The notes under the pieces are model-generated. The model did not search any database. It saw nothing but the letters and a program-made list of their open reading frames with translations, and was not told where the DNA came from. Of a DNA stretch of 64,000 bases, positions 34,870 through 56,497 are shown in pieces. The stretch covers positions 6,950-70,949 of the forward strand of contig JAUCBJ010007841.1 of assembly GCA_032718475.1 (NCBI GenBank), read 5' to 3'. Source of the stretch: Nemertoderma westbladi (taxonomy: Eukaryota > Animalia > Xenacoelomorpha). A program made the translations under genes and the position numbers. The first letter of the stretch is position 1; each line of letters opens with the position of its first letter.

Positions 34870-35252
34870 GTGTCCTTTAAGATGCGTCTCAAGAAAGTCA
34901 TGGGCTGTCCACCATGCTTATTCACTCCATGAGGCTGCCAAAGTACAAGATTATGCACTGGATGGTCCTCACGGCGAAAGCAATGTCCTGCAAAGCGGAG
35001 GTGATTTTGTTCTAGTGTCAAGCTTGGGGGAACCAATGAGACACCTCCAATGTTATATAGTGTCTGGTTGGAGATGTGTGCATTGTATTTGACACAATGA
35101 ACCCGGGTCTCCAATGTTATATAGTGTCTGGTTGGAGATGTGTGCATTGTATTTGACACAATGAACCCGGCGTAGCATTCTTGTTAATGTGCCATCCAGA
35201 GATTTGGTGTCCTCAGCAGATAGAGCCCAGCATGGACTCCCATAGAGGAGTA
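34862..35252 (-). mobile_element. RTE-like LINE fragment, inverted relative to the adjacent copy, with a ~61-bp internal tandem duplication
   Basis: Near-identical to the reverse complement of 56040-56365. Confidence 0.9.
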
Positions 35253-35347: not shown

Positions 35348-35857
35348 TGTTAGCTTATCCAATTCCGCTAACACAAACCCATAAAGTAAGCCGTTAAGCA
35401 ATATTGGGGGCCACGAGGTTGATTACCCAATCTCGTGTCACCCCAATAAAATGGGAAGGAGAAACACACAATAAGGGTCAGGGGCCACACCCCTGACCGG
35501 GAGAGAATAGCAGGAGTGAGGGAAACACTCCAAAGGGCGCCAACAGGGATATCAGCCAATGGGAGGGAGGCACCGGCTAGGTACAGTAACAAGGCCAACC
35601 CGTGCAATATAACCAGTTAACGGTAATCAGTTATTTCAGTTATCTCATTGTGTTGGTCGGTTTAGCTAGGATAGGACCGGAACTTTAATTACCGTTGCGT
35701 AACCACTGTGCAGACATCTTATTCTATATCTATACTATTATACCGGAGGACTTTATACAGCAATCAACAATTATCCACCTTTTACACACACACGGCGGGA
35801 ACGCGACGCGTAAATCAAAAACCGGATAAACCGGGATCCTTTGTGGATCCCGTCACA
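35348..35857 (+). repeat. 5' LTR of BEL element (510 bp)
   Basis: Differs from 55165-55674 at 2 positions by eye; TATA-like TATAAC at 35608 and Inr-like TCAGTT at 35636. Confidence 0.97.
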
Positions 35858-35927
35858 GTAATTAAAGTCAATCGTCCTTAAGTAATTAAAGCCTAGAACT
35901 CCAGCCAGCTACCGATCTAAAGAGGAG

Positions 35928-37459
35928 ATGAGTGACGTTACGCCAACGCGGACCCCGGAGGAAGACCCAACGATTCGCGAGGCCGTGACCAGACGGTATA
36001 GGCCCACGACGCCGGACCCATCGGTAACGGGTCATCCGGCACATCAGGATGAAGGGGGCCGTCTGGAGCCGGAGATCGAGCCGAGAGGAGCGGGGGCCGA
36101 GTTGAGAGAAGGAGAGGGCGAGAGGGACGGAGAAGAAGACGAGTCGACACGGAACGAGGGTCGACGTACCGATGTCGCCGGCCAGCCACAGGCCGAGGGC
36201 GACGAACGGCCCACCGAAACGGCGACGGTGGGGCCGACGGTACGACGCAGGACCCGGAGAGATGGGGGAGATGTCGGTACCGATGTCGCCGGCCAGCTAC
36301 AGGCCGAGGGCGACGGACGGCCCACCGGAACGGCGACGGTGGGGCCGCCAGTACGACGTCGGACCCGGAGAGACGGAGGAGAGGTCGGCGACGAGGACGT
36401 CGGGGTTTCTGATCGACTTCGACGGGCCTACAACGCAACCCGGAAACTACTCAAGGAGGCCAAGGAGGGGGCGAAGATAGATGAGGTACAGTTAACAACA
36501 GGACTAGGTGAGTCGGATAGACATTTTAGTTATCTAATGCGCTTCGGGCAGAGAGAACTGGCCAAGGAGAGAGTGAGAGGGGTTGCCGAGGAACTGTGTG
36601 ATTTATGGCGGTGTAGGGGTATGCAACCTAGTGTAGTGTACGTTGGGCCATACTTAGTCGATGCCCAGGGTATAAAATCAGTGGGTTGGAGGAGACCTGA
36701 GGAGGGCGAATCCGAGGTTGACCCCGAGGATTCGATCTCGTCGGTCGGAGGAAGTTCTGGGAAGAGGGGGAAAGTTAGTAGGTCGGGAAGGCGGAGGGAA
36801 TCCGTCGTAACCGATAAGTCTGCTACATCCTCCATAAAAGAAAGACGGGTGAGAGAGATAAATGCCACATACCATCTCGACCTGATAGCGCAAGGTCAGA
36901 GAGAGATAAATAGACGGTTAGAGGAGGGGAGAATGTAACTAGAGAAGGAATTGGTACTGATTAGAGAAACCGGAGAGAGGGCCGAAAGGGCCGCGAAAAG
37001 CCTTAGAGAGTGTGAGGAAATAGAGAGGAGGGAACAAGAGGAGCGCGAGGCGAGACGGGAGAGTGAACGCAGAGAGCGTGAAGCGGAACGCAAGGAGCAT
37101 GAGGCGAGAGAGGAAAATGAGCGCAAGGAACGTGAGGCGAGAGAGGAAAATGAGCGCAAGGAACATGAGGCGAGAGAGGAAAATGAGCGCAAGGAACGTG
37201 AGACGAGGGAGGAAAGTGAGCGCAAAGAGCGTGAGGCGAGGCGAAGGGAGGGAGCTAGGAGAGAGGCGGAATTGGCCGAACGGAACGCACGGGAGGGTCG
37301 GGAGATAATGGCAAGAGAGATGCGTGAGCGAAAAGAATTGGAAAGACAGCAAGGCGAGCTTATAGAGTACAAAACTAGACGTACGCGCGAATTGGAACTG
37401 GCGCGGGTGGGGGCGTCTGAGAGCGAGGCTGACTCGAAGATTTTCGAGGAGCCAAGGGC
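35928..37459 (+). pseudogene. N-terminal part of the BEL polyprotein (charged, coiled-coil E/R-rich), in-frame TAA at 36936, interrupted by Gypsy insertion
   Basis: ORFs 35928-36938 and 36951- share a frame; purine-rich composition same as BEL pol; resumes near 45014. Confidence 0.8.
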
Positions 37460-37705
37460 TGTGGATATATTTATTAATACCCCACTTACAGGGACCGCAC
37501 GATGTAAGGTTATATATTTTTATCATACAGTACATACATTTTTATTATGATATAGGGAGATGATTAGACATTCAGTTATTGCATTGTACTGACATTCAGT
37601 TATATGATACCGGATTCAGGGATTACATTATTCATACATTCAGTCATTCATTGTTATTGAGTTTTATATATATCCATTACCCTGGAAAGGGGAAGCCCAC
37701 ACAAA

Positions 37706-37723
37706 TGGTGACCCAGACGAGAT
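37706..37723 (+). promoter_or_regulatory. Primer-binding site, tRNA-Trp type
   Basis: TGGTGACCCAGACGAGAT matches 16/18 to the known tRNA-Trp PBS TGGTGACCCCGACGTGAT, directly after the LTR. Confidence 0.85.
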
Positions 37724-38188
37724 GCGACAGGATGCGAGCGATGAAATGTAGAGAAACTACTGAACAATGGTCAACACAACTAAACTTGGAAAATTGCATT
37801 CGGAACCTGTAAAACGACAATTATACATTGCTGCATTGTGTATGGTAAGACGACTGAATGCTACAGTGACGTATACCGTATAATAGCTACCCGGTATTAG
37901 GCCTACCTGCCTACTGACTCAATAAAATATCCAAACTACCGCAGTACCGGTAGGCCGTTAGAAAAAAAAAATACTCAAAAAAAAGCGAAATTTTGGTTCT
38001 AATAAGATTGTAATATTGCTGTATTGTGATATTGTAATACAGTAATAGGCCTGCTGTTGCATTATGATATATACGGACAGGGGCTGATACAACAATCTGC
38101 CTACTGCATACTGGCCTACCACCAGTTGGGAAACCTACCTTAACTGCCTACCTACTGCTCTACAACCTGACAAAGATAAAAAAAGAAA

Positions 38189-39367
38189 ATGAATTACGAT
38201 CACGTAAACAAATCAACTTTAGAAATGGCACTGGAGATTTTAAATGAAGGGGATCCAGATTACCATCCAGATAATACATCAAAGAAAACAAAAAGTGAAA
38301 TAATAGAGATATTAAAAATGGAAAACCAAAATGCTGTAAAATTGGCATTAAGTCATATCCACCAAACTCAAGTTCACATTCCTCAACCTCAGTCGAATAT
38401 ACCGTTACACAATGTTTCATCAGCACATACTGATCCAGATACAAGTAGTAGGCCTATAAAACTGCCGATTTTCTATGAGAAGGATACCCGTGTGTGGTTT
38501 GATCAAATTGAACAAATTTTGGATAACTGTAATGAAAATGTTAAAAAGGCAAGCTTACTTTCTGCAATACCTACCAATGTATTATTTGAAAGTGGTGCAT
38601 GTGTTACTGATAATTTTAACATAATCAAGGAAAGTCTAATAACCCACTTTGATGATAGTGCAGACAGGCGACTGAAACAATTACTTAAAGAACATTATTT
38701 AGGGGACACCAAACCTTCAGTTGCCCTCCGTAAACTGCAAAGGTTAGCACCCAACAATGAAAACATTGTTAAAATAAGATTTCTAGAAATTTTACCTGAA
38801 CCCATAAGGTTATCATTAGTGTCTCTAGAGGGTGTGTCATTAACTAAGTTAGCTGAAATAGCAGATAGGATGATGGAGAATATTCAACTAAGTACTCATC
38901 AAGGTGTATCAGCTGTACAGGTAGCCGCAGATAATGCAGTTACAAACCCATGGAGAGATGATATGGTAAGACAAATAAATAAGTTAACCCAAGCTGTAGA
39001 AAGTCTTCAAACACAAAATCATCGAGGCAGGTCACCTACAAGAAGTAGGAGTAACAATTATTATGGTCAACGAAGTCCATCAAATTCTTCAATCAGAAAT
39101 TATAGTAGACCACGATCAAGTTCACGTTCTTATAATCCAGCTGGAAAAGATTGTTGGTACCACTGGAGATTTGGACAAAAGGCAACTAAGTGTGCAGGTC
39201 CAGAGTATTGTTCATGGAGAATAAATCAACCAACTTATTATCGAAGTGGTGACTCTAATCATTCTAGAGAAGGTAGTGCAGGTATCCCACATCAATATAG
39301 TCGAGATAGTATACCTCATTCGGAAAACTCCCATTCTCCGACGGGAATGCGGAATCCGTCGGAGTAA
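38189..39367 (+). CDS. gag: Gypsy Gag (392 aa)
   Basis: KLPIFYEKDTRVWFDQIE, LGDTKPS, RS-rich linker and CWYHWRFGQKATKC knuckle. Confidence 0.92.
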   Translation: MNYDHVNKSTLEMALEILNEGDPDYHPDNTSKKTKSEIIEILKMENQNAVKLALSHIHQTQVHIPQPQSNIPLHNVSSAHTDPDTSSRPIKLPIFYEKDTRVWFDQIEQILDNCNENVKKASLLSAIPTNVLFESGACVTDNFNIIKESLITHFDDSADRRLKQLLKEHYLGDTKPSVALRKLQRLAPNNENIVKIRFLEILPEPIRLSLVSLEGVSLTKLAEIADRMMENIQLSTHQGVSAVQVAADNAVTNPWRDDMVRQINKLTQAVESLQTQNHRGRSPTRSRSNNYYGQRSPSNSSIRNYSRPRSSSRSYNPAGKDCWYHWRFGQKATKCAGPEYCSWRINQPTYYRSGDSNHSREGSAGIPHQYSRDSIPHSENSHSPTGMRNPSE

Positions 39368-42144
39368 ATTCAATTTATGTCACCGCACACCCAATAGGTC
39401 ATTTCTTAGCAGATAGTGGTACATGGTACAGTTGCTTACCATTAAGTTATGCCACTTCTGATTGTTATTCTCCTCCAGATTTTAATTTAAAGGCTGCTAA
39501 TGGAACTCCAATAAAAATTATAGCTAGAAAAAACCTTTCATTTACAATTCAAGAGTTTCCAAACCAAACATTTAATTGGACTTTCTTTATAGCTGAAGTG
39601 ACAGAACCATTATTGGGAAAAGATTTTATGAAACATTATAATATGCTGATTGATTGTGCAAATGATAGATTAATTCAATCGAAAGATATTATATACACTC
39701 GCCAATTTTGTACAACTCAACCTAAAACAAATTATGGTGATAACTTTTGTATAAACCATATCAAGATTGGTAATGAGTTATATTTACCACAGGTGACTAC
39801 ACTAATCTCAAACTGCAAAGATGTATTTAAACCAGTAAGTGCAGAAGAAGAAGTAAAACATAATATTAAACATCACATCATAACAAGTGGTATGCCAACA
39901 TATTGCAAACCAAGGCGATTATTTGGGGACAGATTGGAAGCTGCTAAAGAGACTTTCAATAAATGGCTCCAACAGGATATATGCTTTCGCAGTGAATCAC
40001 CATATGCATCACCATTACATGTTGCACCTCAACCCCATTCAAAAACAACACCTTACCGCAGTTGCGGTGATTATAGAGAATTAAATAAACATACAGTCCC
40101 AGACAGATATCCAATGCCAAATTTGAATGACTTACCAGCTGCTTTGCATGGATGCAATATTTTCTCTAAACTAGATTTAGCATCGGCATATATGCAAGTA
40201 CCAGTTGCGGAAGAAGACCAAATTAAAACTGCAATCTCTACCCCATTTGGTCTTTTCATTTTTCGAAGAAAGCCGTATGGGTTGCGCAATGCATCGCAAA
40301 CATTTCAGAGGATAATGGATGTAGCCCTTTATGGGTTGACTTTCATCTGGTGTTATGTAGATGATGTATTGGTAGGAAGTAAGACACCTAAGGAACACCT
40401 AGAACATTTGAAAATAATTTTCAATCGACTTGCAGAATATGGTCTACATTTGAGGATTGAAAAGTGTAAATTTTTCTATGATAAAGTGGAATTTTTGGGT
40501 GCAGAAATATCAAAAGATGGTATCAAACCATTGCCAGAAAAGTTAGAAGCGATCATAAACTACCAAAAACCAGAAAGTATCAAACAATTAAAACGACTAT
40601 TAGGTATGGCAGGATTTTACCATAAATTCATACCGAAATTCTCGGATATTGCATCACCCCTAACAGATCTCACCCGGAACTACAATAAGAAGTCAAAAAA
40701 CAATTTTCTTATATGGACAGATGTAGCTTCAGCAGCATTTGAGAAACTCAAATTTGCAATTTCGGAGAGTGTCACATTATCCTTTCCATGTAATAAGCCT
40801 GAATCAAAAATAGAACTTACTACAGATGCATCAAATACAGCAGCGGGTGCTGTGGTTCACCAAGTTATTAATGATGAACGTTTTCCATTAGCATTTTTTT
40901 CGGCTAAGTTTACACCGCGAGAACAAAAGAAATCAGTCTTTGACAGAGAGTTATTGGCAATATATTTATCCCTAAAACACTTCTCTTGGTTACTCGGTTC
41001 CAATATAATAATCAAAACAGATCACAAACCTCTAATACATATACTAAATATGAAAAATCCATCCCCACAGCAGACAAGGTGGATATCATACATTTCAGAA
41101 TTCACTACCTCAATCCAGCATATTTCTGGAAATTCAAACATAGTTGCAGATACGTTATCACGGACAACACAAACTGCAGCAATTATGGTTGACATTGATT
41201 CATCAATAGCTGATATGCAATTATCTGACCCTTCTCTAATAAGTTTTTTCGAAAAAACTACATTACCACTTCATGAATTGAAGACTGATGATAAAGTCAT
41301 TATGTGTGATAATACGAAAGGACATTTAAGACCATACATCCCATATGAAATGCGATTTAAATTATTCCAATATCATCACAATTTAGCACATTTGGGTTTC
41401 AACAAAACATACAAGCTAATTGCCGAAAGGTACATTTGGCCTAGTATGCGTAAGGATGTTCGGAAATGGTGCCGACAATGCATACGATGTCAAAAGGCTA
41501 AAGTTACACGGCACATTAAAACTGAAATTGGAAATATTGAAAACACTGATAGATTTCAGACTATTCATATTGACATTGTTGGAGAATTTATACCTTCCAA
41601 TGGTTATAATTATTTAGTGACTGTTATTGATAGATATACATGTTGGCCAGTAGCCATTCCAGTAAAAAGTATTGATGCCGAAACTGTTGTAAATGCCCTT
41701 ATTTCTGGATGGATCAGCATTTTTGGAGTACCACGTAACTTAATTTCAGACCGAGGAAGTCAGTTTGAGTCAAAGGTATGGGAAGAATTAATGAGGCAGT
41801 TGGGTATTCAACGCAAGAGAACAACAACATATCACCCACAAAGTAATGGTGCTGTTGAACGAATGCATCGCACTATGAAAAATGCTTTGCGGGCACACGC
41901 TGCAGATAAAAGTTGGTCACAGGCATTACCATTGGTGTTATTGGGTTTAAGAACTTCAATTACAAAAAAAGGTTATAGCCCTTCCAAAATGGTTTTAGGT
42001 GGAGTTGTAGATCTACCTGGACAATTTATAATCCCGGATAACCAAACAAAGACTCTCAAAGTTCCTGCATATATGGAGAAATTAATGTCTACAATAAGGT
42101 CGTTTGTAGCACCTGATCGGAAACACAATTCGACTTCAACATAT
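39310..42144 (+). CDS. pol: Gypsy Pol (PR-RT-RNase H-IN) in -1 frame to gag, interrupted by MITE after 42144
   Basis: FLADSGT protease, YVDD RT, TDAS RNase H, HHCC and DDE (IDIVG, SDRGSQF, AVER) integrase motifs. Confidence 0.95.
39322..39364 (+). promoter_or_regulatory. Putative -1 ribosomal frameshift signal
   Basis: GGAAAAC in the gag/pol overlap, followed by CTCCGACGG/CCGTCGGAG (9 bp) and CATTC/GAATG stems. Confidence 0.7.
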
Positions 42145-44019
42145 GTGGCGGTGAAAGCGAAAAGGTACCTTAAGGTGAAAATGTCGTTTTGAGAAAATCG
42201 CACTTAAAGAAAAATTAAATTTTCAAGTCAAAATTTTCAATTTTTTTATTTTCAATGTGATATATGCAGTTTTTAATGAGGAATCCAAATCTGTTAACGG
42301 TATGTTAACAGCTAGCTTAGTTTTGGAGATAATCAGCTTTGATTGAGAGTAGTCAGAAGTTTTGAAATTTAAATCTCATTCCCGATAGATATTATGTTGT
42401 TCTATGTAGATTTACTCTTATAAATTAATTTATATGCCTTATTATTCCAATAGAAAACTATCTTCCAGTTATTTTCAATATGTTTGCTTGTCAATCGGTC
42501 TGTCTGTCCGTCTGTTTGTCTGTTTATCTGTCAAGTGTTGTCAGTCATTTTATAAATTTTTAGATCTTGGCTCAGAAATTATAATTTTGATGGTATAAGG
42601 GTTTTCGAGGTCGTTAAACACGATAAAACATCTTAAAAATATTTTCGGGTAATGCAACCATCATTTTTGGTGCTATTTTGGACCCACAGAACGAAAAGTA
42701 CAAGTAAAAAAATGTCAAATTAAAAAATGTTGTGTTTCGATTGATAATTCCGAATGTATGCGGGTTTTTGAGGTCGCTGATCACGATAAAAAATGTTAAA
42801 AATATTTTTGGCAATACAACCATCATTTTTGGTGCTATTTTTGACCCCAGGACGAAAAGTACAAGTAAAAAATGTCAAATAAAAAATTGTTGTGTTTCGA
42901 TTGATAATTCTGAACGTATACGGGTTTTTGAGGTTTGTTGTTCACGTGCTGCTCGAAGTCCCAGACCAGATAGCTAGCTACCTCAGTTGTTCACGTGCTG
43001 CTCGAAGTCTCAAACAAGATAACTAGATAGCTTTGTTGTTCACGTGCTGCTCGAAGTCCCAGACTAGTCTACTATAACTAGCTACCTTTATTGTTCACGT
43101 GCTGCTCGAAGTCTCAAACTAGATAACTAGCTAGCTTTGTTGTTCACGTGCTGCTCGAAGTCCCAAACTAGATAACTAGCTACCTTAGTTGTTTACGTGC
43201 TGCTCGAAGTCCCAAATTAGACAACCATAGTTACCTTAGTTGTTCATGTGCTGCTCGAAGTCTCAAACTAGATAACTAGCTAGCTTTGTTGTTCACGTGC
43301 TGCTCGAAGTCCCAAAATAGATAATCATAGCTAGCTTACTTGTTCCCGCGCTGCTTGAAGTCCCAGACTAAGCTACCTTAGTTGTTCGCATGCTGCTCGA
43401 AGTCTCAAACTAGATAATTATCTAGCTTTGTTGTTCACGTGCTGCTCGAAGTCCCATACTAGATAACTAGCTACCTTAGTTATTCACGTACTGCTCGAAG
43501 TCTCAAACTAGATAACTAGCTACCCTAGTTGTTCATGTGCTGCTCGGAGTCCCAGACTAGATAAAAACCCAGCATAGTTGTTCACGTGCTGCTCGAAGTC
43601 CCTGCCTTAGATAACCATCCAGCTTAGTTGATCACGTGCTGCTCGAAGTTCCAGGCAGCATAGTTGTTCATTAGTTTGCTAATGTATATTCCTATTACAC
43701 ATTTTGCCCCTCAAGCCTCAACATCACAACACAACAACAGACCCACTCCGATTTAGCAAACTCACTTTCAAGATTATATTGTAAGTAATCCCTACTACTA
43801 TTAAAATACAACAAAAATTTTAAACGCGATTTACTCATAATAGTATATTTTCCATCTGGTTGTCTTGCCAATACTTAATTTCTAATAACTCTTGATGTAC
43901 TCATCCAATCAGGATGATTTATAGCTCATTAGAGAGCTGAGATGTTGGCCAATCACATGCAATATCTAACTCAAAAACCTCATTTTCACCTTAAGGTACC
44001 TTTTCGCTTTCACTGCCAC
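42145..44019. mobile_element. Non-autonomous TIR DNA transposon (1.9 kb) inserted in Gypsy integrase
   Basis: TIR GTGGCGGTGAAAGCGAAAAGGTACCTTAAGGTGAAAATG with inverse at 43981-44019; TSD ATAT (or TA, since the site is palindromic); removal restores STSTYVPKYMKDISHVWIR. Confidence 0.95.
42937..43670. repeat. ~49-bp minisatellite (GTTGTTCACGTGCTGCTCGAAGTCCCAAACTAGATAACTAGCTACCTTA), ~15 copies, preceded by a ~165-bp tandem duplication
   Basis: Read directly. Confidence 0.93.
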
Positions 44020-44662
44020 ATATGTTCCAAAATATATGAAAGACATTTCACATGTGTGGATTAGAAATGATCGTAAAAAAGGAAGTCTAGTTGATCGATA
44101 TACAGGCCCTTATGAAGTAATTGAACGGAATGATAAAACTGTCTCAATAAGCGTCAAAGGTATTTCAACGAAAATATCAATGGACCGGGTTAAACCTGCT
44201 TTCTTACAAATAGATGATAACAACAATTGGAATACCCATGAAAGTTCACAAAATTCGCAAACTGAAATAACTAACCAAAAGGTGATTGTACCGGGATCTC
44301 TATCGAAAACTGGGATCGGGACAAGTGAATCGAGAGAAACTCATACTTGCAAAAGACATGCTCCAAAGATTTTAAAACATAAGGTTGTTTGTGCACCTTT
44401 ATCCGATAGTTATTGGCCAGCGTTAATATTACCATATGATTCAGTAATTAATAAGAGACATTGTTTTCCTAATGAAGTTCCAGTCAATTACCTTGCCATA
44501 AATAAGTGTGGTTTTGTTACAAAGGATAAATGTGTAAAATATTCGGACTCATATTTTAGGGATCAGCACCAAACACGTAAATTAACACATGCTACAGAAT
44601 TAGCTCGAAACTTCTTGTCCCACAAACCGTCAGTTGTAAAACGCAGAGTCAAGTTTGTTTAA
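44020..44662 (+). CDS. Gypsy integrase C-terminus: GPY/F module plus PWWP-like domain
   Basis: RYTGPYEV...SMDRVKPAF, then KVVCAPLSDSYWPALI...VPVNYLA...GFV...KLTHATELA. Confidence 0.8.
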
Positions 44663-45013
44663 ATTATCAATGCAATTTATTCATTGAACATTTATTGATA
44701 TTGAAATTAATGTATATTTTTGTTTACTATTATATAAGTGTGAAACTATTTTTCTTGAAAGATTTTAAAAAAATAAATGTTCTATATTATTTTTTCACAT
44801 ATTGTATGTACAAATAGTATTTGTCTGCAAGAATTATATTTACAATGTTACTGTGAAATGAATGTATTAATTAATAATCTATAATGTTCGCAAGATCGCA
44901 ACATTAATGATGGTATCTCTAAGCTTATATATATTGCTTACACATTATTTTATGGTAATCTCCCATTTACTTATATATAAATATTTAATTTAATTGTAAA
45001 AAAAGAGTAATAG

Positions 45014-48000
45014 GAGAGTAATAGGGGGATTGCGAGTATCCCCAGTGGCGTGCGATCGAACAGAGAGAGGCAGGTTGACGTCGCGAGAGGGCGGACGAAG
45101 CGCCGAGCCCGATCAGAAGAGGGAAGAAGAACAGTGGAGTTTAACCGGGAGGTCGATGAGAGATCTCACGAGCCGGAATACTGCACTGAAAGGAGAAGAA
45201 GAGAAGACAGCAGAAGAAGTATCGCCGCGAACGACAGGAGAGCGAGGACGGATAGCGAGCCGTCGGTAGTTGAGATGGAAAGAGAAAGTCGGTGGGGTCG
45301 AACTTCGGGAGATTGCCGTCGTCCCGGAGAGACACGACCTGATGAGACGCGTTACGCGTCGAGAGAGGGGTACACAATGTACCGGCACGAAGACGAGAGT
45401 AGTAGGGGGGGTCAAAGAGGAACTTTCCGACGGGATATACCTACAGATCGAGAGTACGGTAGCCGCGGGGAGGATTATTCGAGAAGAATAAACTTCGATC
45501 CCTAGCAACACATACAGACTGTAGGACATACTGTAGGCCTTACTGCACATACCATAGGCCATGCTGACAGGAATAACGTAGACGATAGGATAGTGCGGAT
45601 GACGGAATTAAACCCGGAAGTCGCGGAGTACATACCGGCAGGTAGGCCAGAAGTTGATAGGCCTATACCGGTACCAGTACAGCAGTATGACTACAGCATG
45701 CAAGGACATAACATATACCCAGGGGAGGGGGGAATTATTGCGGATAGATGCATGGGCCCCAATATATTAACATCAACCCCAGTACCAAACATACCGGTGG
45801 GGGGGGGGGGGACAGGGTGACATTCCCCCATCGCAATATCAACAATATACCCCGATAGGAGCAAGAACAACGAGACCCTTGGATGGAAATAGGTCATGTG
45901 ACACAGAAATATGGAGGGGGCCGCTACCCCCAATGATATACCCAAGCCAAAGAAAGGCAGAAAATAGGACGGGCGGACCACACCCAACAGGAGAAACTAT
46001 ACAACATCCATCGAATCCATTGGAAGCGCAGGCGATGGGGATGGCCACGTTGATCGATGCATTAAAAACAAGGATCGAATTACCACCCGTGGAACCATTC
46101 AAATTCGATGGGAGTAGGCCGGAAGAATATCTCCAGTTTCGGCGTATGTATAGTAACGAAATACTAACAAAGAACTTGACGCAGGCGGAGTGCCTAAAGT
46201 ATCTGCAAGTATACACAGGAGGCCCAGCATACGACATCGTGAGGCAATATCAGGGCATAGAGGGCGGCTTCACGACGGCATGGCGGGCACTGGACAGGGA
46301 ATACGGGCACCCGGCCAAGATCATCAGGCAGACCCTGAGAGGCATAACATCGGGTGGCCTACAGGATAATCCCGTTAGCATTAAGACATTCGCGAACAAG
46401 GTCGAGAAGGCGCTAATCGTGTTAAAGACGCTAGACGCGCCATACGAACTCAACGCGTCCAACAACATCACCACGATAGCGCAGGCACTACCGATGTGGT
46501 TGCGCAACAAGTGGAGGAAAATCGCTTTCTCCACTCGAGATAGGAAGGGTGCGGAACCGGGTTTAGAAGAAATGTCAAGCTTCTTAAACTACGAAGCTGA
46601 ACTAATAACCGACCCAGTCTATAGCGAAGATAGCCTGGGAAAGGGACCGAAGACGGATTACCATAGACCGAAACCAGAGCACAATACGTCAAACGCATTA
46701 CCGAAGCTCAGGCAATCACTGCCATATGCAGCGACGCAGGGGACTGCAAGTCCACAGGTAGCCGAAGGTAAGACCACACCATGGAACGGACAGGGGAACA
46801 ATAACAACACGAATAAATATAACCCCAGTACGTCCAGTAGGCCGAACCCAAACAATAAGAATAGTAGGGACTTTGGTACAAACGCAGCTGCGATACGCAA
46901 TGCACTGTATAAGGAGGGCTACGACCCAAAGAGCAAATGCCAGCTACATACAAATGCGCTTCATCAAACCATGAACTGCAGGTACTGGCAAGCGCTACCC
47001 AGGGAAGATCAGGTAGAATATGCGGCGAGGAATGAGATCTGCTCGCGATGTGTGATGAGTGGACATAGAGCTAGGCAATGCAAGGAGACGCCGGTCAAGT
47101 TCGGTCAAAGGAAAGGCCAAACGATGGCAACGAGCACAGTAGGGACGAAGAAGAGAGGAACGGTGCTACTTGGGGTAGTACCTGTGCGAGTGATTGGAGA
47201 AGGCAATCGATCAGTAACAACACTAATGCTGGTTGATAGTGGAGCTGCCTTCACATTAGTCGAGGATTGGGTGGCCGAAGAAATAGGATTGAGAACGAGG
47301 CCAAGTAGAATGGCGGTAACAACCATCTCCAGCAAAGATGAGGTCCTGGAGATGAGAACCGGACGGTGCACCATCGCAGCAATAGCACCAGGATGCGACT
47401 ATGGGGCGAGCATCGACCCCATCCAAGTGATAGAGTCAATAAACATCAATGCCAGACGGCCAACCAACATCGAGGTCGAACAATATAAATTTCTGGATGA
47501 TATCGACTTCTCAATCCCAGAGGTGGACGTTAGGAAGGTATCCATCATAGTAGGAATGGACTGCCCAACGGCCCACGAAAGAATGCAAACGGTCTTCGGC
47601 GAAGACAAGCAGTGTGACCCGGTGGCGATACTGACACCATTCGGGTGGACGCTGAGTGGCCCAATCAAGAGCAAGATACCATTTAGGATGTCGGAGACAT
47701 CAGGATGCATGTTCGCGGGAACTATGCAGGAAATGAGTGATGAGAGAGCAGAGGAGCAGCTTAAAAGACTGCTCAGACAGGATTTTGAAGGATTAAAGGA
47801 GACCGGGGTCGGGACCTCGGTGGAAGACAAACAGGCTCAGCAGAGCGTAGAGGAGTCTATGAAATGCGACGAGGGGCGGTACACCATAGGAATGGTATGG
47901 AAGCTACCGAAGCTACCACTGCCCGATAATAGAGGGATGGTACTCACGAGGCTCCGCAAGCTGAAGCAGACACTAAAACGGAGCCCCGAGAAGAATGAGT

Positions 48001-51000
48001 ACATCCACAGAACGATTAAGAAGTACGTCGAGAAAGGATGGGCCGTGGAGTTACCGGTCGACGAACCAAACACGGACAGGACATATTACCTGCCACTCCA
48101 CGTGGCTTTAGACCCAAAGAAAGGTAAACTGCGGATGGTAGTTGACGCATCGGCAAAGACCAACGGAAAATGCTTAAACGACTATCTACTAGAAGGTCCG
48201 AACATATACAACTCAGGGATAGAGGTCCTACTTAGATTTAGAAATGGGAAACACGCCTTCACGTGTGACATAGAAGGCATGTTCAACCAAGTCCGTGTAA
48301 CGGAGGAAGATAGCGACAGTCAACGCTTCTTATGGTACAACGGTGACGAAGAACCGTCGATAATACCGACGTACAAGATGGTAGTACAGAACATGGGAGC
48401 CAAGTCGTCTTCATTTACGACGACTATGGCAGTAAGAGATACAGTGAAGGGGAAGGAGGATAGATACAGCACTAGGGCCGTCGATATGATTCGACGCGGC
48501 TTCTACGTAGACGACGGAATGGAGTCTGGAAATACGGTTAAGGAGATACTGGACACAGGGCGCGAGGTTCGCGACATCCTAAAAGGATCCGGCTTTAACC
48601 TGACCAAATTCCAATCCAGTTCGGAGGAATTTATCAAGGCGATAGGGGACGAGAGACCAGAATCGACTATGGATAATCCCACAACGGCCAAAGGGCAGGA
48701 CATGGCGAACAAGAGGACAGAATCTCAACAGAAGGCACTGGGAATCGTGTGGAACAGAGAGACAGATGAACTGAAGTACCAGCTGAGCCAGGAGGGCGCA
48801 GACATCCACACAAAGAGAGGCTATGTGTCATACATAGCAAGAATATACGATCCCCTAGGTCTAGCATCCCCACTATTAGTCACGGGGAAGCAGATACTCA
48901 AGAGAGTATACAAACTGAAGGATGAGTGGGATGTAGAGGTACCAGAGGAGATCAAGAAACAGTGGTGTAAGTGGACAGAAGGTTTGGAGAAGATGGGAAC
49001 ATACAACATGCCGCGAGTGTATTTCCCGGATGGGAACATGACGAATCTGGACTTACACATGTTCTCCGATGCGTCGTTGGAGGCGTACGGAGCGGCACTC
49101 TATTTAGTACAACGAGAGGGGGCTCACAAGCCCAGACTGGCCTTTAGCAAAGCTAAGTCAACGCCGCCAGATTCAGCATCAGTTCCCAAACTAGAATTGA
49201 CAGCTGCCAGACTAGGAGTTAGGGCCACAGCCTACCTAGTGGATACTATTCCCAACATAGTGGAGACACACTACTGGACGGATTCCATGGTAGTGCTTGG
49301 TTGGCTACATAACGAAAGGACGAGATACCCTATATTCGTCGCGAATAGGGTGGACGAGATAAGGGCGACCACAGAATTGGAAAGGTGGCACTACTGCCCA
49401 ACGGACGAGAACCCAGCGGACTTGTTATCAAGGGGCGTGGCACGCCACACTTTCTTAAAAAAGGAAGGATTGTGGCAACACGGGCCGCAGTTTCTGAGCG
49501 ACAAGGAGGCCTGGCCGCCGATGAGAAAGGTGGACCCGGGCTCAGGAGAGGTAGTGTCAGAAGGAGAAGAGGGAGATTCAGAGGGAGAAGAGATATACTC
49601 CCAGATGGTGAGGGAGATAAGGGACGTGCAACCTAAACCAGAAGAACTGTGCGATAACCCGACGGATAAACTCCTCAGCTACAGCTCTAGTTGGTATAAG
49701 ACCAAGAAATTAGTGGCGTACTGGAGAGCCTTCGGGAATTTCCTCGCGGGAGTTGGCAAAGGCAAGAAGATCAGGACAACCATAGATCTGGAAGGAGCGG
49801 CCAAAGCAGTCATCCGCTATGAACAACGGAAGAGCTATGGCGACGAGGTGGAACGCGTCGGTAAACAACAGCACCTTCGACGGGACAGCGAGCTGATCAC
49901 GCTGTCGCCACAACTTAATGACGACGGGATTCTAGTAATGAATTCCAGGGTGGGATACAACAACAGCATAGTCGTACCACCGAAACCCATCATCATTCCC
50001 ACAGGATCGCCAATAGTCCACCAGATTATCTGGGACTCCCACAAGTCGATATTGCACGGGGGCACCAACCGAACCCTTACGGAGATACGGAGGACCTTTT
50101 GGGTCAAGCAGTTGAGGAAGAAGGTAAAAGCGGTAGTGGGGCAGTGCCAGACCTGCCGACGAGCGAAGAAGGAGCGAGCCATACAAGAGATGGCACCACT
50201 ACCAGCGAGTAGAGTAAGACAGCACGACCCTCCATTTACACATTGCGGTGTGGACATGTTCGGGCCGATAAAGATCAAGGTGATGCGGCACACGGAGAAA
50301 CGCTACGGTATTATCTTCGTATGTAACAACACGCGGGCGGTAGGGATAGAACTCGCCCAAGATGCAACCGCATCAGCATTTATTAATGCATTAGAAAGGT
50401 TCAGAGACCGCAAAGGTGGGACGATCGCAGTAATGTACTCCGACAGCGGAACCAACTTTGTGGGAGCAGAGAACGAGATGGCAGAGGCCTTGGACATCTT
50501 GGAAGGGGAGGAAGTCAGGGCGGCCATGAGACGACGACAAGTAAAGTGGGAGAGAAGGACGCCGTATGCACCACATACACTAGGATGCGTCGAGAGACTG
50601 GTGGGCAGTTCGAAGCGTCTCATGACGAAGTTAATGAACACCCACATGGTCACCGAGGACGTCTTGAGAACAGTGCTTGCGAAGTGCGAGGGTATCATTA
50701 ATAGCAGACCGCTATATCCGGAGAATGATGACCCTGAGTCATTAGATGTGCTGACGACCAGCCATTTTCTAATGGAAAGGCCAGCGACCATCGATATGCG
50801 GGGTGTAGACCCAGATGACATTCACTCCCGCCAGAGTTGGAAGGTCGCTAAAGCGATAAGCGCAGAATACTGGAGAAGGTGGGTTGAGGAATACCTACCC
50901 CGCTTCACAAAAGAAGCAAGTGGAGGAAGTCGAATAGGGAGTTAAGAGAGGGCGATCTCGTAATCGTCACGGATAATACCATCATCAACAACCAGTGGCG

Positions 51001-51148
51001 GTTGGCGAGAGTTGTAGGCACTTACTCCGATGAGGACGGAAGAGTCCGATCGGTAGAAGTGCGGATAGGGGGCAAGATAGGTGCGAAAGACAGAAAAACC
51101 TACAGGAGAGCTGTAGGGAAATGCTGTCTATTAGAAGGGGCACCTTAG
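45014..51148 (+). pseudogene. BEL/Pao Gag-Pol (capsid-like, Zn knuckle, protease, RT, RNase H, integrase); 1688-aa open segment 45879-50945
   Basis: FKFDGSRPEEY gag, CSRC...H...C, LVDSGA, FYVDDG, FSDAS, NPADLLSRG, GVDMFGP, SDSGTNF; TAG at 45503; frameshifts at G-run ~45800 and ~50905; terminal KW...GDLV...WRLARV domain ends at 51148. Confidence 0.95.
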
Positions 51149-51259
51149 ATCGTTTGTTAGAAAGGAGTTTAGTCGTCCAAGTTTTGGACTGAGGGGGGTG
51201 GGATAGAGGGCGAGACGCCCTTCCCACACATAAAATAAAAATAAAATAAATAAAAATTA

Positions 51260-51900
51260 GAGTTAGTTAGTTAGTTAGGAGTTAGCTACAAGGTACGTAG
51301 TACCTAGAGCTAGTTAGTTAGTTAAGAGTCAGTTAGAAGGTACGTAGTACCTAGAGCTAGTTAGTTAGTTAGGAGTTAGTTAGAAGGTACGTAGTACCTA
51401 GAGTTAGTTAGTTAGTTAGATAGGAGGTACGTAGTACCGAGAGTTAGGAGTCAGTTAGTTAGAGGTGTTAGAGAAGTAGTAAGAGGGTACGTAGTACCGG
51501 TGGTTAGTAGAGTTAGAGGTTAGTAAGAGGGTACGTAGTACCGGTTAGTAAGAGTAGAGTTAGAGTAGTTAGTTAGAGGGTACGTAGTACCGGTGGTTAG
51601 TAGAGTTAGAGGTTAGTAAGAGGGTACATAGTACCGGTTAGTAAGAGTAGAGTTAGAGTAGTTAGTTAGAGGGTACGTAGTACCGTTGGTTAGTAGAGAA
51701 GGTTAGTGGAGTTAGAGGTTAGTAAGAGGGTACGTAGTACCAGTTAGTAAGAGTAGAGTTGGAAGTTAGTAAGAGGGTACGTAGTACCGATAGTTAGTGG
51801 AGTCAGAGAGTAGTAAGAGGGTACGTAGTACCGCTAGTTAGTTAGAGGTTAGTAAGAGGGTACGTAGTACCAATTAGTAAGAGATAGAGGTAGAAGGGTA
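51260..51900 (+). repeat. Internal tandem array in BEL: ~13 GGTACGTAGTACC cores separated by GTTAG/GAGTT-rich spacers
   Basis: Read directly. Confidence 0.9.
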
Positions 51901-52354
51901 TACATAGTATAGATATTAGTCAGTAGTTAGTAGCGAGAGGGGGGCATATGAGTACAGTTGGATAGATCGTGTAGGCCACGCGACATATACTGCTGTACTG
52001 CACAGGCCCATAGAGTAGGTCAGAATGTGGATTATGAAATAGAATAATCCATAAACAGTAAAGTAGTAGAATTAAGTTAAATCAAAATAAATAGAATAAA
52101 TAGGGCTAAAAATTACAAATTATGGTAACAACAGGGAAGTTGTTCTGGAACATAATTAAAGCAACGGACAGAAATTGCAAATAGGGTACATTTGTTAGCT
52201 ACAAAATTAAGTAATAGAAATTTAGGCTAAAAGGCGTAGTTAGATAGGAAATAGGCCATTCTCGAACTGTGCAGACCATCAGAAACTTATCACTCATCTG
52301 TATTGCGCCTTGGTAAGGCACCACCTTACAGGTGAGCGAGTGAGAGTGTTTGGA

Positions 52355-54912
52355 ATGGCGGGAAAACTGATCAGAAAGAGAAAGGCGGAACAAGGAGGAA
52401 AGGAGATACTGGTGGATTTCACCAAGAGGCATCCGGAAGTGAAGACGAGAGGATACTACGAGAGGTTGGGAAAGGGTCACGCGGCACGGGCGCTGCAGGA
52501 CCACTTCCGGGAGATGCACGAACAGCGGCTGGTCGGGACCTACGGGACGCCGTCGCTGGACAACGCGATCTTCCAACACTTCCACTACGTGGTGAAGGGG
52601 GACGAGGCGAAGTTCGGGATTCCGAAGTACCCGAGGGAGTCGCCGAAGAAGGATTGGAAGAGGTTTATAGAGTCCGTCAACAGGGGAGGATATATGATCC
52701 TAGACGACGAGGGAACCGTGGAAGACGAGGAGGGTTCGAGACGAGGATCAGCGGGGTCGGCCAGGACCATACTCCTACATTTGGCCGCGCCAAATGGGGA
52801 CATTTTCTTATTCAACCTAGGAACGTACGGGAGAAAGGACGGGCCAAAATTAAACCGGTTGCCGAAAGCGTGCAAGTCCTGGTAAGAGAGAAGTCGACGA
52901 CGAAAGTGGGATCGGCGATTCGCAAGGACGCGGAGAGAATCATCGGTCCGGACGCCACCAACCTCCTGGATATGCAGAAGGTCTTCATGGCTATGACAGC
53001 ACCAGATGGGTTGGGAGTAGTCGGGAACACAGGCCAATGCGGGCCGGTGGCAATGGGCCAGCTATTGGGGCTCGTATGCCACAAACCGATGGACTAGGGG
53101 AAGTTCAGGGAGGAATACGGTGCAGAACTAGCGAACTCGCTAAAGTGGGGAGCGAGACCGGGAAAGCAAGAGGTGTATCAATTCCGAAGAGAAGCGATAA
53201 AGGTATATCAGAAGCGATATATCCTGCAGGAAGATTGGATAATGATAAGTTTGCTTAACTTATTCATGACCGTGGTTATCGAGAGGGAACCAGCGGCATT
53301 TCTGTTATCGGGATCACCCCTAAGCTACAGGAGAGCCTTTAAGACGGCCTTCGACGGTCTGGTAGACCACCCGGGGCTGAAGGGCGAGTCGGTGTACTAC
53401 AACAGCCGACATCTGATAGACGGGGAGATAGATACGCCGTATCAGAGATGGGAGCAGCTAGAGACAGATAGACGAGAGGCAAAGCGACTGGAAGAAGTCG
53501 CGAGACGGAAAAGGATAGAAGCAGAGGAGAGGGAGGAGGAGGCCAGGACGCAGAGTTACGGCTTCGAGGAACAGGCAGGCTTAGACGAACTTCGTTGGAC
53601 TTCATCAGGGAGTTCGGGGGAGTCTCTAGGGCGAGAACTGGGATGGACGGTGGGATCGCCGAAACAGTCGACGTCGGGGTTGCAAGCGATGCCCATACCA
53701 GCGGGCGCCGAAGGCGACCAACCGCTAAGGAAGTTTGGGGAGCTAGAGGGATGGAGAGCTACGGGCGAGAGCCAAGGCGGGAAGGGACATAGTGGATCCA
53801 TCGGGATACCGGGGTTGGAGCCACTGCCAGAGGAGGACGAAGACGACGACGAGTTCGGAGAGATACCGCCCATCGAGAGGATTGGCCACTCGGACACGGA
53901 CTGGGTTGGCGGGAGGGTGGTGACGGCCAGTGGGGCGAGGGCCTTCTGGGATAGACCAGGCAAGCGGGCCTGGGTGCACGAGGAGCCGGCAATGGATTTC
54001 GCGGGGAGCACTATCAGGTTGGGCGAGCAACCGGGGACGGCACCACGGGTAGTATTCGGGGAGACGATGCCCGAGAGGGGCGAGGAGATCGACGTAGACA
54101 GGGACACTAACGTGGAGAAGTTCGCCTACCAGCGACTCCACAGACCGCGGAGATCGCTTGGGACGAAAGACGACGTGGGCGGGAGACATTGGTACTCGGT
54201 TGCGATGGATTACTGTGGGAGACAGACCCACCAGGAAAGGAGGTGTTTGTACCGATTCCAAAAGGGGACCTTTTGTCTCTACTGCCGCGAGTCGAGCCAC
54301 AGGATGGGGGCGTGTCCACAGTTGCATAACCGATGTCCGAAGTGTAACTTCCAGGGACACTACGGACGCCAGTGCGACTGGATGGACGATGAAGAGAAGT
54401 TCAGAATCTTCGAGGAGTGAGCCGACGTCGGGGCCATGACGCGGCAACGCATGAAGGCTCAGGAGTTCAAGAGGGGTTTCTTCCTTATCAATCAGGAGGC
54501 TCACTTGGAAATCATAAAGCGGAGGTTACCGTTTACCTATCAAGAGGTAGCAACGGCGGCGTCGTATGCCGGGGTGATAAATACACAGAGGTATTTGGAC
54601 AGGTGGACGCCACAGAACCGAGGGGAGTTTAGGGATTTCTTGGCGGAGCACGTGCCGCGAGCAATGAAGATGATCTTATGGGACGCCACCAGGGGGAGAC
54701 AACAGGGCCACTCGGAGGGGCCACCCGCGAAGCGATATCGGGAGCTGATAACACCAGCACCCAAGGAGCCAACGACCGGGATCAGTAAGGAGGTGGCGGC
54801 GAGGGTCCGAAGACAGAAAGCGGATCCCAGAGGAGCGGTAGTGACCAGGAAACGACCCAGGGAGGAGGACGGCAAAGGGAAAGACTTGAGGTGGTTCCCA
54901 AAGTCAGGGTGA
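52355..54912 (+). pseudogene. Extra BEL ORF (~850 aa reconstructed): DEDDy 3'-5' exonuclease-like domain, acidic linker and CCHC zinc knuckles; one frameshift (~52865) and two in-frame stops (53095, 54418)
   Basis: ILDDEG (Exo I), LLHLAAPNGDIFLFNL, KVGSAIRKD (Exo II), LLDM, LLG...K, QKRYILQED (Exo III); CLYCRESSHRMGAC and CPKCNFQGHYGRQC. Confidence 0.72.
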
Positions 54913-55126
54913 GAACAGAGTGGGGCTAAAGTGGCGAAAGTGTTGGGGAAACAAAAGTCGTGTGAGAGGAGCGCACGATCGGCCCGACATGGGACGCCAG
55001 GTGAACCGGGTAGCATTATCATACCCATAGTGAGCGGCCTGGAAAGCTGGCTCCGAGAGAAAATAGTTCCACCCCACACCCGATGCTAGATCGGGATCCA
55101 GCGGAATTGTAGCGCACTTTAGGAGG

Positions 55127-55164
55127 ATGCTATCTTCTCACCGGGAAGATAGCATGGGGGGGAG
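55127..55164 (+). promoter_or_regulatory. 11-bp hairpin immediately followed by the polypurine tract
   Basis: ATGCTATCTTC / GAAGATAGCAT stem, then GGGGGGGAG abutting the 3' LTR. Confidence 0.85.
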
Positions 55165-55674
55165 TGTTAGCTTATCCAATTCCGCTAACACAAACCCATA
55201 AAGTAAGCCGTTAAGCAATATTGGGGGCCACGAGGTTGATTACCCAATCTCGTGCCACCCCAATAAAATGGGAAGGAGAAACACACAATAAGGGTCAGGG
55301 GCCACACCCCTGACCGGGAGAGAATAGCAGGAGTGAGGGAAACACTCCAAAGGGCGCCAACAGGGATATCAGCCAATGGGAGGGAGGCACCGGCTAGGTA
55401 CAGTAACAAGGCCAACCCGTGCAATATAACCAGTTAACGGTAATCAGTTATTTCAGTTATCTCATTGTGTTGGTCGGTTTAGCTAGGATAGGACCGGAAC
55501 TTTAATTACCGTTGCGTAACCACTGTGCAGACATCTTATTCTATATCTATACTATTATACCGGAGGACTTTATACAGCAATCAACAATTATCCACCTTTT
55601 ACACACACACAGCGGGAACGCGACGCGTAAATCAAAAACCGGATAAACCGGGATCCTTTGTGGATCCCGTCACA
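55165..55674 (+). repeat. 3' LTR of BEL element (510 bp)
   Basis: Near-identical to 35348-35857; followed by TSD TTGAT. Confidence 0.97.
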
Positions 55675-56497
55675 TTGATGATGACTTAGGAGTACTCTCA
55701 GAATCACTAGAGGGAGCCCAACGGCTCCTCAGCTCATTAGAACATGCTGCTTCTAGTGTTGGTCTTTTTATTAACTCCAGAAAGACCAAAATTTTGACAG
55801 TTAACTTTGAAAGTCCTCAGCAAGTCTCTGATCGGATGAGCATAAGCTCAAAAGATGGTATGCTTGAACATGTGGATGACTTCTGTTACCTGGGATCATG
55901 GATCCGGAAGTCAGGTGAGGACCTTCGAATACGTAAGGGAAAGGCATGGGCAGCCTTGAATAGGCTTTCCAGGATTTGGAAGTCACCGAGAATTAATCGG
56001 AAACTTAAGGTCCGATTATTTAGAGCAGCAGTAGTTCCAGTACTCCTCTATGGGAGTCCATGCTGGGCTCTAACTGCTGAGGACACAAAATCTCTGGATG
56101 GCACATTCACAAGAATGCTACGCCGGGTTCATTGTGTCAAGTACAATTCACACATCTCCAACCAGACACTATATAACATTGGAGGTGTCTCATTGGTTCC
56201 CCCAAACTTGACACTAGAACAAAATCGCCTCCGCTTTGCAGGACATTACTTTCGCCGTGAGGACCAGCCAGTACATAATCTTGTACTTTGGCAGCCTCAT
56301 GGAGTGAATAAGCATGGTGGACAGCCCATGACTTTCTTGAGACGCATCTTAAAGAACGCTGGCCTTGGAGATGCGGATGATCTAGCAAATGTCATGGGTG
56401 ATGGGGAGTTGTGGCGGTGCAATTTTGTCGATAAGCCGGCACAGCATTCTTAAAAATGCAGCTGCAATGCAGCATGCCGATCCTAATAGTAGTAGTA
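55675..56497 (+). mobile_element. RTE-like LINE, RT C-terminal half and 3' tail (host of the BEL insertion)
   Basis: GLFINSRKTK, FCYLGS, KAWAALNRL, VLLYGS, RLRFAGH; stop at 56453; (TAG)n tail. Confidence 0.93.

Follow-up and report, generated by a model that had tools for sequence, protein, structure and literature searches.

Which protein does a BEL/Pao retrotransposon encode in the position of an env gene, and what might that protein do for the element? The question is raised by a 64,000-nucleotide stretch of DNA from Nemertoderma westbladi (contig JAUCBJ010007841.1, positions 6,950 to 70,949; hereafter the window, whose numbering is used throughout), in which 52355-54912 is the third gene, open reading frame 3 (ORF3), of a BEL/Pao long terminal repeat (LTR) retrotransposon at 35348-55674. 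An original prediction, made from the letters alone, had described the gene as a DEDDy 3′-5′ exonuclease-like domain of the WRN/EXD/RNase D type fused to zinc knuckles. Hidden Markov model (HMM) comparisons, predicted folds and a zinc-module profile all support that description, and we are nearly certain that the gene is a DEDDy and zinc-module ORF3 of BEL/Pao.

In this copy the gene is interrupted. It had been read as four pieces joined across one frameshift and two stops into about 850 codons, and the pieces (52355-52885 in one frame; 52336-53097, 53098-54420 and 54421-54912 sharing another) come to 852 residues when X is put for each break. The frame shifts near 52868-52870, and the two stops lie at 53095-53097 and 54418-54420. 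All of the DEDDy motifs named in the prediction were found in the order given. ExoI is ILDDEG, with D at 52703 and E at 52709 in the columns of the homologues' D-x-E; ExoII is KVGSAIRKD, with D at 52927 in the column of the homologues' D; LLDMQ follows at 52969, and ExoIII is RYILQED, with Y at 53218 and E at 53230. ExoIII thus reads Y-x3-E in the window, as it does in homologue P0011, in place of the usual Y-x3-D, and in the window an Asp comes next. The expected two complete C-x2-C-x4-H-x4-C knuckles begin at 54274 and 54334, and in the first, degenerate knuckle the leading Cys is missing. Hydropathy over 19 residues peaks at 1.44, and the N-terminus has a basic composition; by this simple test ORF3 has neither a transmembrane segment nor a signal peptide, as had been claimed. 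An env-like role was ruled out by the missing transmembrane segment together with the nuclease fold.

Homologues were collected in a full HMMER (phmmer) scan of 1.84 billion representatives at E ≤ 0.001. This gave 28 hits, 25 of which share the knuckle region and its tail; the other three, generic or repeat proteins, were left out. In nine long homologues that the C-terminal module had brought up, the N-terminal region follows the motif order of the window. Against an HMM of these nine N-termini the N-terminal 330 residues of the window scored 35.3 bits (E 4.5e-13), compared with 8.9 bits for the best of 1000 shuffles and -2.0 for the reversed sequence; one piece of ORF3 alone (piece A) gave a weak match. 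A profile of eight of these homologues, from which the window sequence was excluded, picked out EXD2 from the PDB (E 5e-6) together with trypanosome RNase D, and the domain of homologue P0006 reached a score of 0.95 in the ESM Atlas, where PF01612 clusters account for 25 of its 30 hits. The structure model of homologue P0022 has a mean predicted local distance difference test score (pLDDT) of 52.6, with values of about 60-84 across the N-terminal half of the domain. It returned 63 Foldseek matches at E ≤ 0.001, EXD2 being the top one and trypanosome RNase D among the leading ones. Its structural matches include Nibbler (Z 15.7, root-mean-square deviation 3.2, 188 residues aligned), RNase D (Z 15.0) and WRN (Z 13.8), and the inactive RNA-binding proteins EXD1 and Egalitarian lie lower, at Z 12. 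The ORF3 N-terminus is predicted to adopt a DnaQ/RNase D (DEDDy) fold, a fold reached through P0022 and P0006 and tied to the window by the profile score, in line with the DnaQ-like fold anticipated for it.

Other searches added little. With the window pieces, phmmer against the PDB gave just weak knuckle matches; the best ESM Atlas hit of the N-terminal piece (0.82) was discarded as noise, and a metagenome scan with an N-terminal piece yielded no confirmed relative among 330. Scans of viral contigs (0 of 17) and prokaryote genomes (0 of 35) likewise gave no confirmed relatives, and word-index searches found no homologue among 528 or 4438 candidates and only P0011 from 7988.

The zinc module matched the homologue family with a probability of 98.9 (E 2e-17). 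All 28 aligned sequences agree in its Cys/His, Gly and Thr columns, and its tail is helical and carries a conserved F-E-x2-A-x2-G-x2-T-x2-R. In the PDB the module profile matches the trypanosome RNase D finger domain best (E 1.9e-5). A model of the module from homologue P0023 (pLDDT 86, predicted template modelling score 0.81) matched none of 48161 chains at Z ≥ 2 and nothing at E 0.001 in the PDB or viral libraries, a lack from which neither a novel fold nor any divergence from the fingers of RNase D follows. In P0003 the module is present twice, behind a dead exonuclease domain.

Active sites were compared in the 11 sequences that span the domain; P0008 was excluded and P0017 begins after ExoI. 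The D-x-E of ExoI is kept in five of them, and all four acidic positions in four: the window, P0006, P0011 and P0022. Because the zinc ligands are invariant throughout the alignment whereas the acids persist in four of 11, the conserved core of the family, judged from these alignments, lies in the zinc module and in the fold rather than in catalysis.

A copy broken in at least three places could be taken for a passenger, a captured fragment of a host gene that brings the element no benefit. Sister copies, which we define as contigs from public DNA runs of the same organism aligned to 51950-55700, argue otherwise. Four runs supplied 9208, 5200, 5641 and 131 such contigs, which gave depth in every one of the 30 bins for three of the runs and in 28 bins for the other. 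At the stop 53095-53097, 27453 of 27523 of the depth in run X1 and the whole depth of the other runs read otherwise, so this stop is private to the present copy. Five contigs of run X2 diverge at the frameshift site. At the stop 54418-54420 no differing row occurs among the best 40 of 665, and the homologues align straight across it. Inside ORF3, 18 of 27 sister differences are synonymous against 6.7 expected, with none of 5000 simulations as extreme; the 27 come from 28 rows among the best-supported 40 of 665, the stop row excluded, and as these rows are the best supported and not a random sample, the count is no ratio of nonsynonymous to synonymous rates. Conservation of the ORF in sister copies had been named as a check on the prediction, and ORF3 is indeed a standard, conserved gene of a very high-copy family.

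The breaks are a matter of this copy's history. Its 510-bp LTRs show two differences in 509 compared positions (99.6% alike), and with at least three breaks in 2.5 kb the breaks therefore probably predate the insertion. The ORF3 of this copy is dead, and the copy was probably mobilised in trans by proteins of its sisters. Over 54176-54207, just before the degenerate first knuckle, most of the sister depth has small indels, so the degeneracy of that knuckle is likely decay of this copy. Single contigs of run X5 skip 52661-54520 and 52434-54081. Depth is about five-fold higher over 55100-55225, the hairpin before the polypurine tract, a cis element common to many more copies, perhaps non-autonomous ones.

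The element itself has the marks of BEL/Pao, whose known range (PMC8742986) points to an animal host. It carries paired LTRs with TG..CA ends and a TTGAT target duplication on both flanks, a polypurine tract before the 3′ LTR, and a gag-pol with protease, reverse transcriptase, RNase H and integrase in that order and Pao-specific domains by Pfam; the frame 45771-50945 holds DUF1759, protease, reverse transcriptase, PF05380 RNase H (E 2.7e-40) and integrase. The element measures about 12.8 kb once a nested insert is discounted.

Related BEL families were sampled with one narrow pattern, which led from 57 metagenome stretches to six confirmed loci in five families (L001-L006) and biases the sample to that pattern; four broader alignments gave no usable search pattern. 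In L003, L004, L005 and L006 a Pao-type pol is followed directly by an open ORF3, and since L005 and L006 are 99% identical, the extra ORF that was predicted in the env position also stands behind pol in three distant families. Their pol is only 27-29% identical to that of the window, and the ORF3 gene is therefore common to distant BEL lineages. All three families lack the catalytic acids. Dead ORF3s of 865-890 residues are nevertheless kept open behind pol in L003 and L006, and the dead ORF3 of L004 is open and in frame with pol, which argues that something beyond catalysis is selected. A passenger is barely credible when the gene is open at such a distance in pol, when the stop 53095-53097 is missing from nearly all sister depth and when the best-supported sister differences are so largely synonymous; that explanation is already largely refuted.

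We tentatively favour, with somewhat more doubt than conviction, an accessory protein that binds the RNA of the element through its zinc module and arranges the RNA ends, trimming being optional. Such a protein would be expressed from a spliced RNA, as env genes are. On the model of trypanosome RNase D and nucleocapsid, its zinc module would bind the element's own RNA, and the protein would help to prepare the RNA ends for packaging and reverse transcription, with 3′-end trimming just in lineages that keep the catalytic acids. A donor at 36508 is good by sequence. The splice acceptor predicted at about 52331 exists as sequence (CCTTACAG/G) but has only 8 pyrimidines in 15, and 19 of 194 YAG sites inside gag-pol reach at least nine, more than this acceptor does. 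In L004:2-5857 pol and ORF3 share a single open frame, and in L003 and L006 one in-frame stop lies between them, which makes read-through an alternative to splicing.

Several points weigh against the RNA-binding accessory. The acceptor upstream of ORF3 is weak. The fold was modelled on homologue P0022, with its mean pLDDT of 52.6, and not on the broken copy in the window; Pfam gave no significant family for the four window pieces, and only 3 of the 28 hits touch PF01612, all of them below its cut-off. Genomic context comes from the five related families at six loci and from none of the 25 protein hits. Lastly, ExoIII of the window has Glu in place of the usual Asp, and the window family has kept all four acids, so that catalysis may be its main job.

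That last point leads to priming, since the original prediction coupled the exonuclease to a tRNA-less, self-complementary primer-binding site (PBS). The site itself is well borne out. The PBS at 35858-35868 is the exact 11-nt complement of the LTR segment 35682-35692, a pairing expected by chance at about 1.3e-4, and the predicted duplex has pair probabilities of 0.75-1.0. The primer of Tf1 is likewise 11 nt long. The PBS adjoins the LTR and begins with GTA, not TGG, as it also does in sister contigs, and the 18-nt tRNA-complementary site listed for BEL/Pao by the international virus-taxonomy committee ICTV is missing. Just before the LTR end an 8-bp hairpin is predicted, a feature like the U5 inverted repeat (U5-IR). 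The fold of the whole leader is unexceptional (z -1.3; 14 of 200 shuffles fold equally well), and within it only the duplex itself is improbable by chance. In two studies there are contigs that cross from the end of the LTR to the PBS and reach 35863-35866. A second copy of the first 10 PBS nucleotides lies at 35882-35891, 24 nt downstream. One sister difference falls at 35686 (12% of X1 depth, two contigs), and its partner position is where two contigs of X5 diverge; the two observations are unphased and belong to separate runs. The sequence makes it likely that the element copies itself without a host tRNA primer; alternatively, an internal fragment of a host tRNA may prime at this PBS.

TATA-like and initiator (Inr)-like motifs suggest a transcription start near 35638, with the pairing segment at +45 to +55. 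From such a start the segment would lie inside the R region and so also near the 3′ end of the RNA. We suppose that the window family would prime by a Tf1-like cut at 35692/35693, made more probably by the element's RNase H than by ORF3. In the alternative, primer maturation, the exonuclease would trim an LTR-derived RNA until the edge of the 11-bp duplex is reached, which would leave the primer 3′-OH; the simplest substrate would be genomic RNA at its 3′ end, where the R region would carry 55499-55509, and lineages back on tRNA-type priming would have lost the active site. We think this unlikely. The duplex does stop exactly at the LTR boundary, and the pairing segment is better conserved in sister copies than the LTR immediately downstream, X1 depth being 5200-6200 over 35660-35695 and 470-1000 just beyond. 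The predicted start would also place the segment within the RNA and not at its 5′ end as in Tf1, and RNase D-type enzymes trim structured RNA 3′ ends, according to the accessible text of PMC7797062. The same text, however, has trypanosome RNase D trimming despite pairing with mRNA, and the Tf1 primer needs RNase H cleavage (by titles in the reference list of PMC4600332), for which RNase H motifs are present in the window pol. A 3′-5′ exonuclease could make the primer only on an RNA whose end comes soon after the pairing segment, and downstream of the predicted start there is no canonical poly(A) signal. ORF3 is, moreover, retained where its nuclease is dead.

The related families bear on the same link. 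L003 and L005/L006, the two families with a visible 5′ end, have a TGG tRNA-Lys-type PBS. DEDDy-bearing relatives with tRNA-type sites count against a general priming role of ORF3, as far as their sequences tell; their acids are lost, though, so the test is not clean. Seen the other way, one family combines a live nuclease with a tRNA-less PBS and two combine a dead nuclease with a tRNA-type PBS, a pattern which weakly fits the priming idea. A sample of one family against two neither proves nor refutes the proposed link.

All six loci carry in the 3′ untranslated region (UTR), 70-91 nt before the inferred LTR start, the 12-nt motif CCCAC(G/A)TTGGGC, which matches the 3′ end of tRNA-Lys(CTT) minus CCA and is missing from the window. 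Of 22 loci that match the pattern 16 were tested, and at 14 of these the same 12-nt stretch lies inside tRNA-Lys(ctt) genes. The motif is able to pair with 8 PBS nucleotides or alternatively to fold as a small hairpin, and possible roles are an element-encoded primer, an end-bridging signal or a dimer signal. A parallel to this mimic would be Cer7 of C. elegans, a BEL-type retrotransposon whose additional ORF specifies a tRNA-like sequence complementary to the element's own PBS. Neither the window nor L001-L006 yields a complete tRNA with ARAGORN, and Rfam gave nothing credible in L001-L006 or at the 3′ end of the window. A strong pyrimidine tract with CAG/G, resembling an acceptor, lies in the 3′ UTR upstream of the tRNA-like motif in four families, and a short spliced RNA could carry the motif. 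Every family seen has a primer-related oddity in its RNA, the self-complement in the window and the tRNA-Lys mimic elsewhere, which speaks for the RNA-binding accessory. It is distinctly unlikely, in our estimate, that a BEL/Pao branch supplies its own primers in the full sense that the window family self-primes through ORF3 trimming while sister lineages use the tRNA-Lys mimic with a dead-nuclease chaperone.

Two further roles are suggested by the structural neighbours. In counter-silencing, ORF3 would bind or degrade host small RNAs or tailed 3′ ends, dead versions serving as decoys. Action on small RNAs is a trait of Nibbler/mut-7, EXD1 and trypanosome RNase D, and these three are among the best structural neighbours of the P0022 model; the family is very abundant in its host, as the contig numbers of three runs attest, and the accessible text of PMC5408684 raises a silencing role, possibly with higher copy number of Juno1/2. 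We rate this reading as rather unlikely, as it leaves the primer-related RNA features unexplained. ORF3 might also be a transport adaptor, an Egalitarian-like (pseudo)nuclease that grips structured RNA and carries the element RNA to the germ line. Egalitarian is matched (Foldseek E 1.3e-6; Z 12.0), many family members are dead, and the 3′ UTR at 54913-55164 is strongly structured, none of 200 shuffles folding equally well. Egalitarian ranks under the active RNase D-type enzymes, however, a motor-adaptor motif was not noticed, though no search aimed at one was made, and the window lineage kept its acids, so we hold the adaptor to be highly unlikely.

The features of the element and of the related loci are collected in the table below.

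Features of the BEL/Pao element in the window, and of related loci where a locus name precedes the position
Feature	Position	Strand	Basis or remark
5′ LTR	35348..35857	+	TG..CA, 510 bp; repeat comparison with 3′ LTR; TTGAT duplication
TATA-like TATAA in 5′ LTR	35608	+	motif
Inr-like TCAGT in 5′ LTR	35636	+	motif
LTR segment complementary to PBS, candidate self-primer	35682..35692	+	3′ LTR copy at 55499-55509
Terminal hairpin of 5′ LTR	near 35833-35852	+	predicted fold
PBS without TGG, adjoining LTR	35858..35868	+	pairing; sister contigs
Low-complexity coding stretch upstream	35929..37460	+	interrupted by stop 36936-36938 and nested insertion
Donor-like AG/GTGAGT	36508	+	inside stretch 35929..37460
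Nested Gypsy-like element, foreign to BEL element	37460..44997	+	ends approximate
BEL/Pao gag-pol	45771..51148	+	DUF5641 tail in another frame from 50888
Tandem array, 44-49 nt units, separating pol from ORF3	51258..51900	+	
Possible splice acceptor, weak	52324..52332	+	sequence
ORF3 N-terminal 112 residues	52355..52690	+	no family match
ORF3 DEDDy 3′-5′ exonuclease-like domain	52691..53270	+	motifs; fold via homologues
ORF3 charged low-complexity linker	53271..54200	+	sequence not conserved among homologues
ORF3 zinc module	54205..54610	+	one degenerate and two complete CCHC knuckles and conserved tail; crossed by stop
Structured 3′ UTR, polypurine tract at its end	54913..55164	+	fold z -3.3
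3′ LTR	55165..55674	+	LTR comparison
tRNA-Lys-like 3′ UTR motif	L001:938, L002:1093, L003:9930, L004:6030, L005:4222, L006:10104		
Acceptor-like tract	L001:845-875, L002:990-1008, L003:9900-9922, L004:5925-5946		

The nested Gypsy-like element has no matching second LTR, and its integrase is split by another insertion (42138-44026), which has 53-nt inverted repeats and contains a 49-nt tandem array. Fragments of a non-LTR retroelement-like repeat, of which the window has several copies, flank the BEL element (55647-56453 and 34863-35252). The window Gag has one full CCHC knuckle and one variant (46940-47080), against three in the Gag of L003 and L006. L005:1-10456 is a circularly permuted assembly of a GC-rich BEL family with a 111-nt end overlap, holding one LTR, PBS, gag-pol and ORF3. 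Seven tRNA-Lys(ctt) pattern matches (L010-L012, L021-L024) share a single 13-kb contig that is listed under a bacterial metagenome-assembled genome and is likely eukaryotic contamination.

How far, then, is this gene new? DEDDy ORF3s in rotifer LTR and Penelope-like elements were already invoked by the original prediction, and the accessible text of Rodriguez et al. 2017 (PMC5408684) does describe them in the bdelloid Juno/Vesta LTR elements and Athena Terminons. The ORF3 of the window resembles these, to which that text assigns no function, in its DEDDy-like domain, its env position and the lack of a transmembrane segment. The rotifer ORF3s, however, belong to rotifer-specific LTR clades and Penelope-like elements and have a DEED motif, and no knuckle module is described for them in the accessible text, whereas the window type belongs to BEL/Pao, has 850-890 residues and a conserved zinc module, and occurs with live and dead sites; it is by description that the two are set apart. 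A DEDDy ORF3 as such is thus already known from rotifers, and what is new is a separate, wide BEL/Pao family with a zinc module. We found no report of a BEL/Pao exonuclease ORF or of BEL/Pao self-priming in the literature searched, which covered few subscription papers and left Repbase notes outside its scope. The word 'exonuclease' does not occur in the main text of PMC3118150, whose supplements hold BEL sequences and may include such ORFs, and the accessible parts of PMC11662393, PMC3601003 and PMC6431247 contain nothing on BEL exonucleases.

The closest solved architecture is that of trypanosome RNase D (TbRND), in which an RNase D-type exonuclease is likewise followed by C-terminal CCHC fingers. 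According to the accessible text of PMC7797062, TbRND is a cellular mitochondrial enzyme that trims the U-tails of guide RNAs, its fingers binding single-stranded RNA for the exonuclease. Its linker is short, in contrast to the long charged linker of ORF3 and the conserved helical tail after the knuckles, and the ORF3 homologue model shares 16-20% identity with kinetoplastid RNase D in structural rows. EXD2, Nibbler/mut-7, WRN, EXD1 and Egalitarian share with ORF3 the fold, the motif order and the occurrence of active and inactive members; they are, however, host genes without a zinc module, at about 12-21% identity, and the window differs in its Y-x3-E ExoIII. The BEL/Pao family thus combines an architecture like that of trypanosome RNase D with natural live and dead versions, and it escapes Pfam. 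As these versions track different primer sites, its function is testable by comparison and assay.

In priming, the window invites comparison with Tf1, Tj1 and sushi, whose primer is a 5′ segment of the mRNA; self-priming is predicted for copia TAR elements too (accessible texts of PMC4600332 and PMC6317226). As in these elements, the PBS of the window lacks TGG, is complementary to a segment of the 5′ LTR and is accompanied by a hairpin at the LTR end. Tf1, Tj1 and sushi are Ty3/gypsy chromoviruses, however, while the pol of the window is Pao-type and not that of a chromovirus; its primer segment is predicted about 45 nt inside the mRNA, against the 5′ end in Tf1, and the accessible texts describe no exonuclease ORF for Tf1, Tj1 or sushi. 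The profile of the Belpaoviridae (PMC8742986) gives an 18-nt tRNA-Arg/Gly PBS, priming by host tRNA, a length of 4.2-10 kb and an env-like third gene. The window agrees with it in its LTRs, gag-pol domain order, polypurine tract and optional third gene, and differs in its non-tRNA PBS, its length of about 12.8 kb and the nuclease-like nature of the third gene. The tRNA-less, self-complementary primer site of this element therefore departs from the ICTV description of BEL/Pao as primed by host tRNA (PMC8742986).

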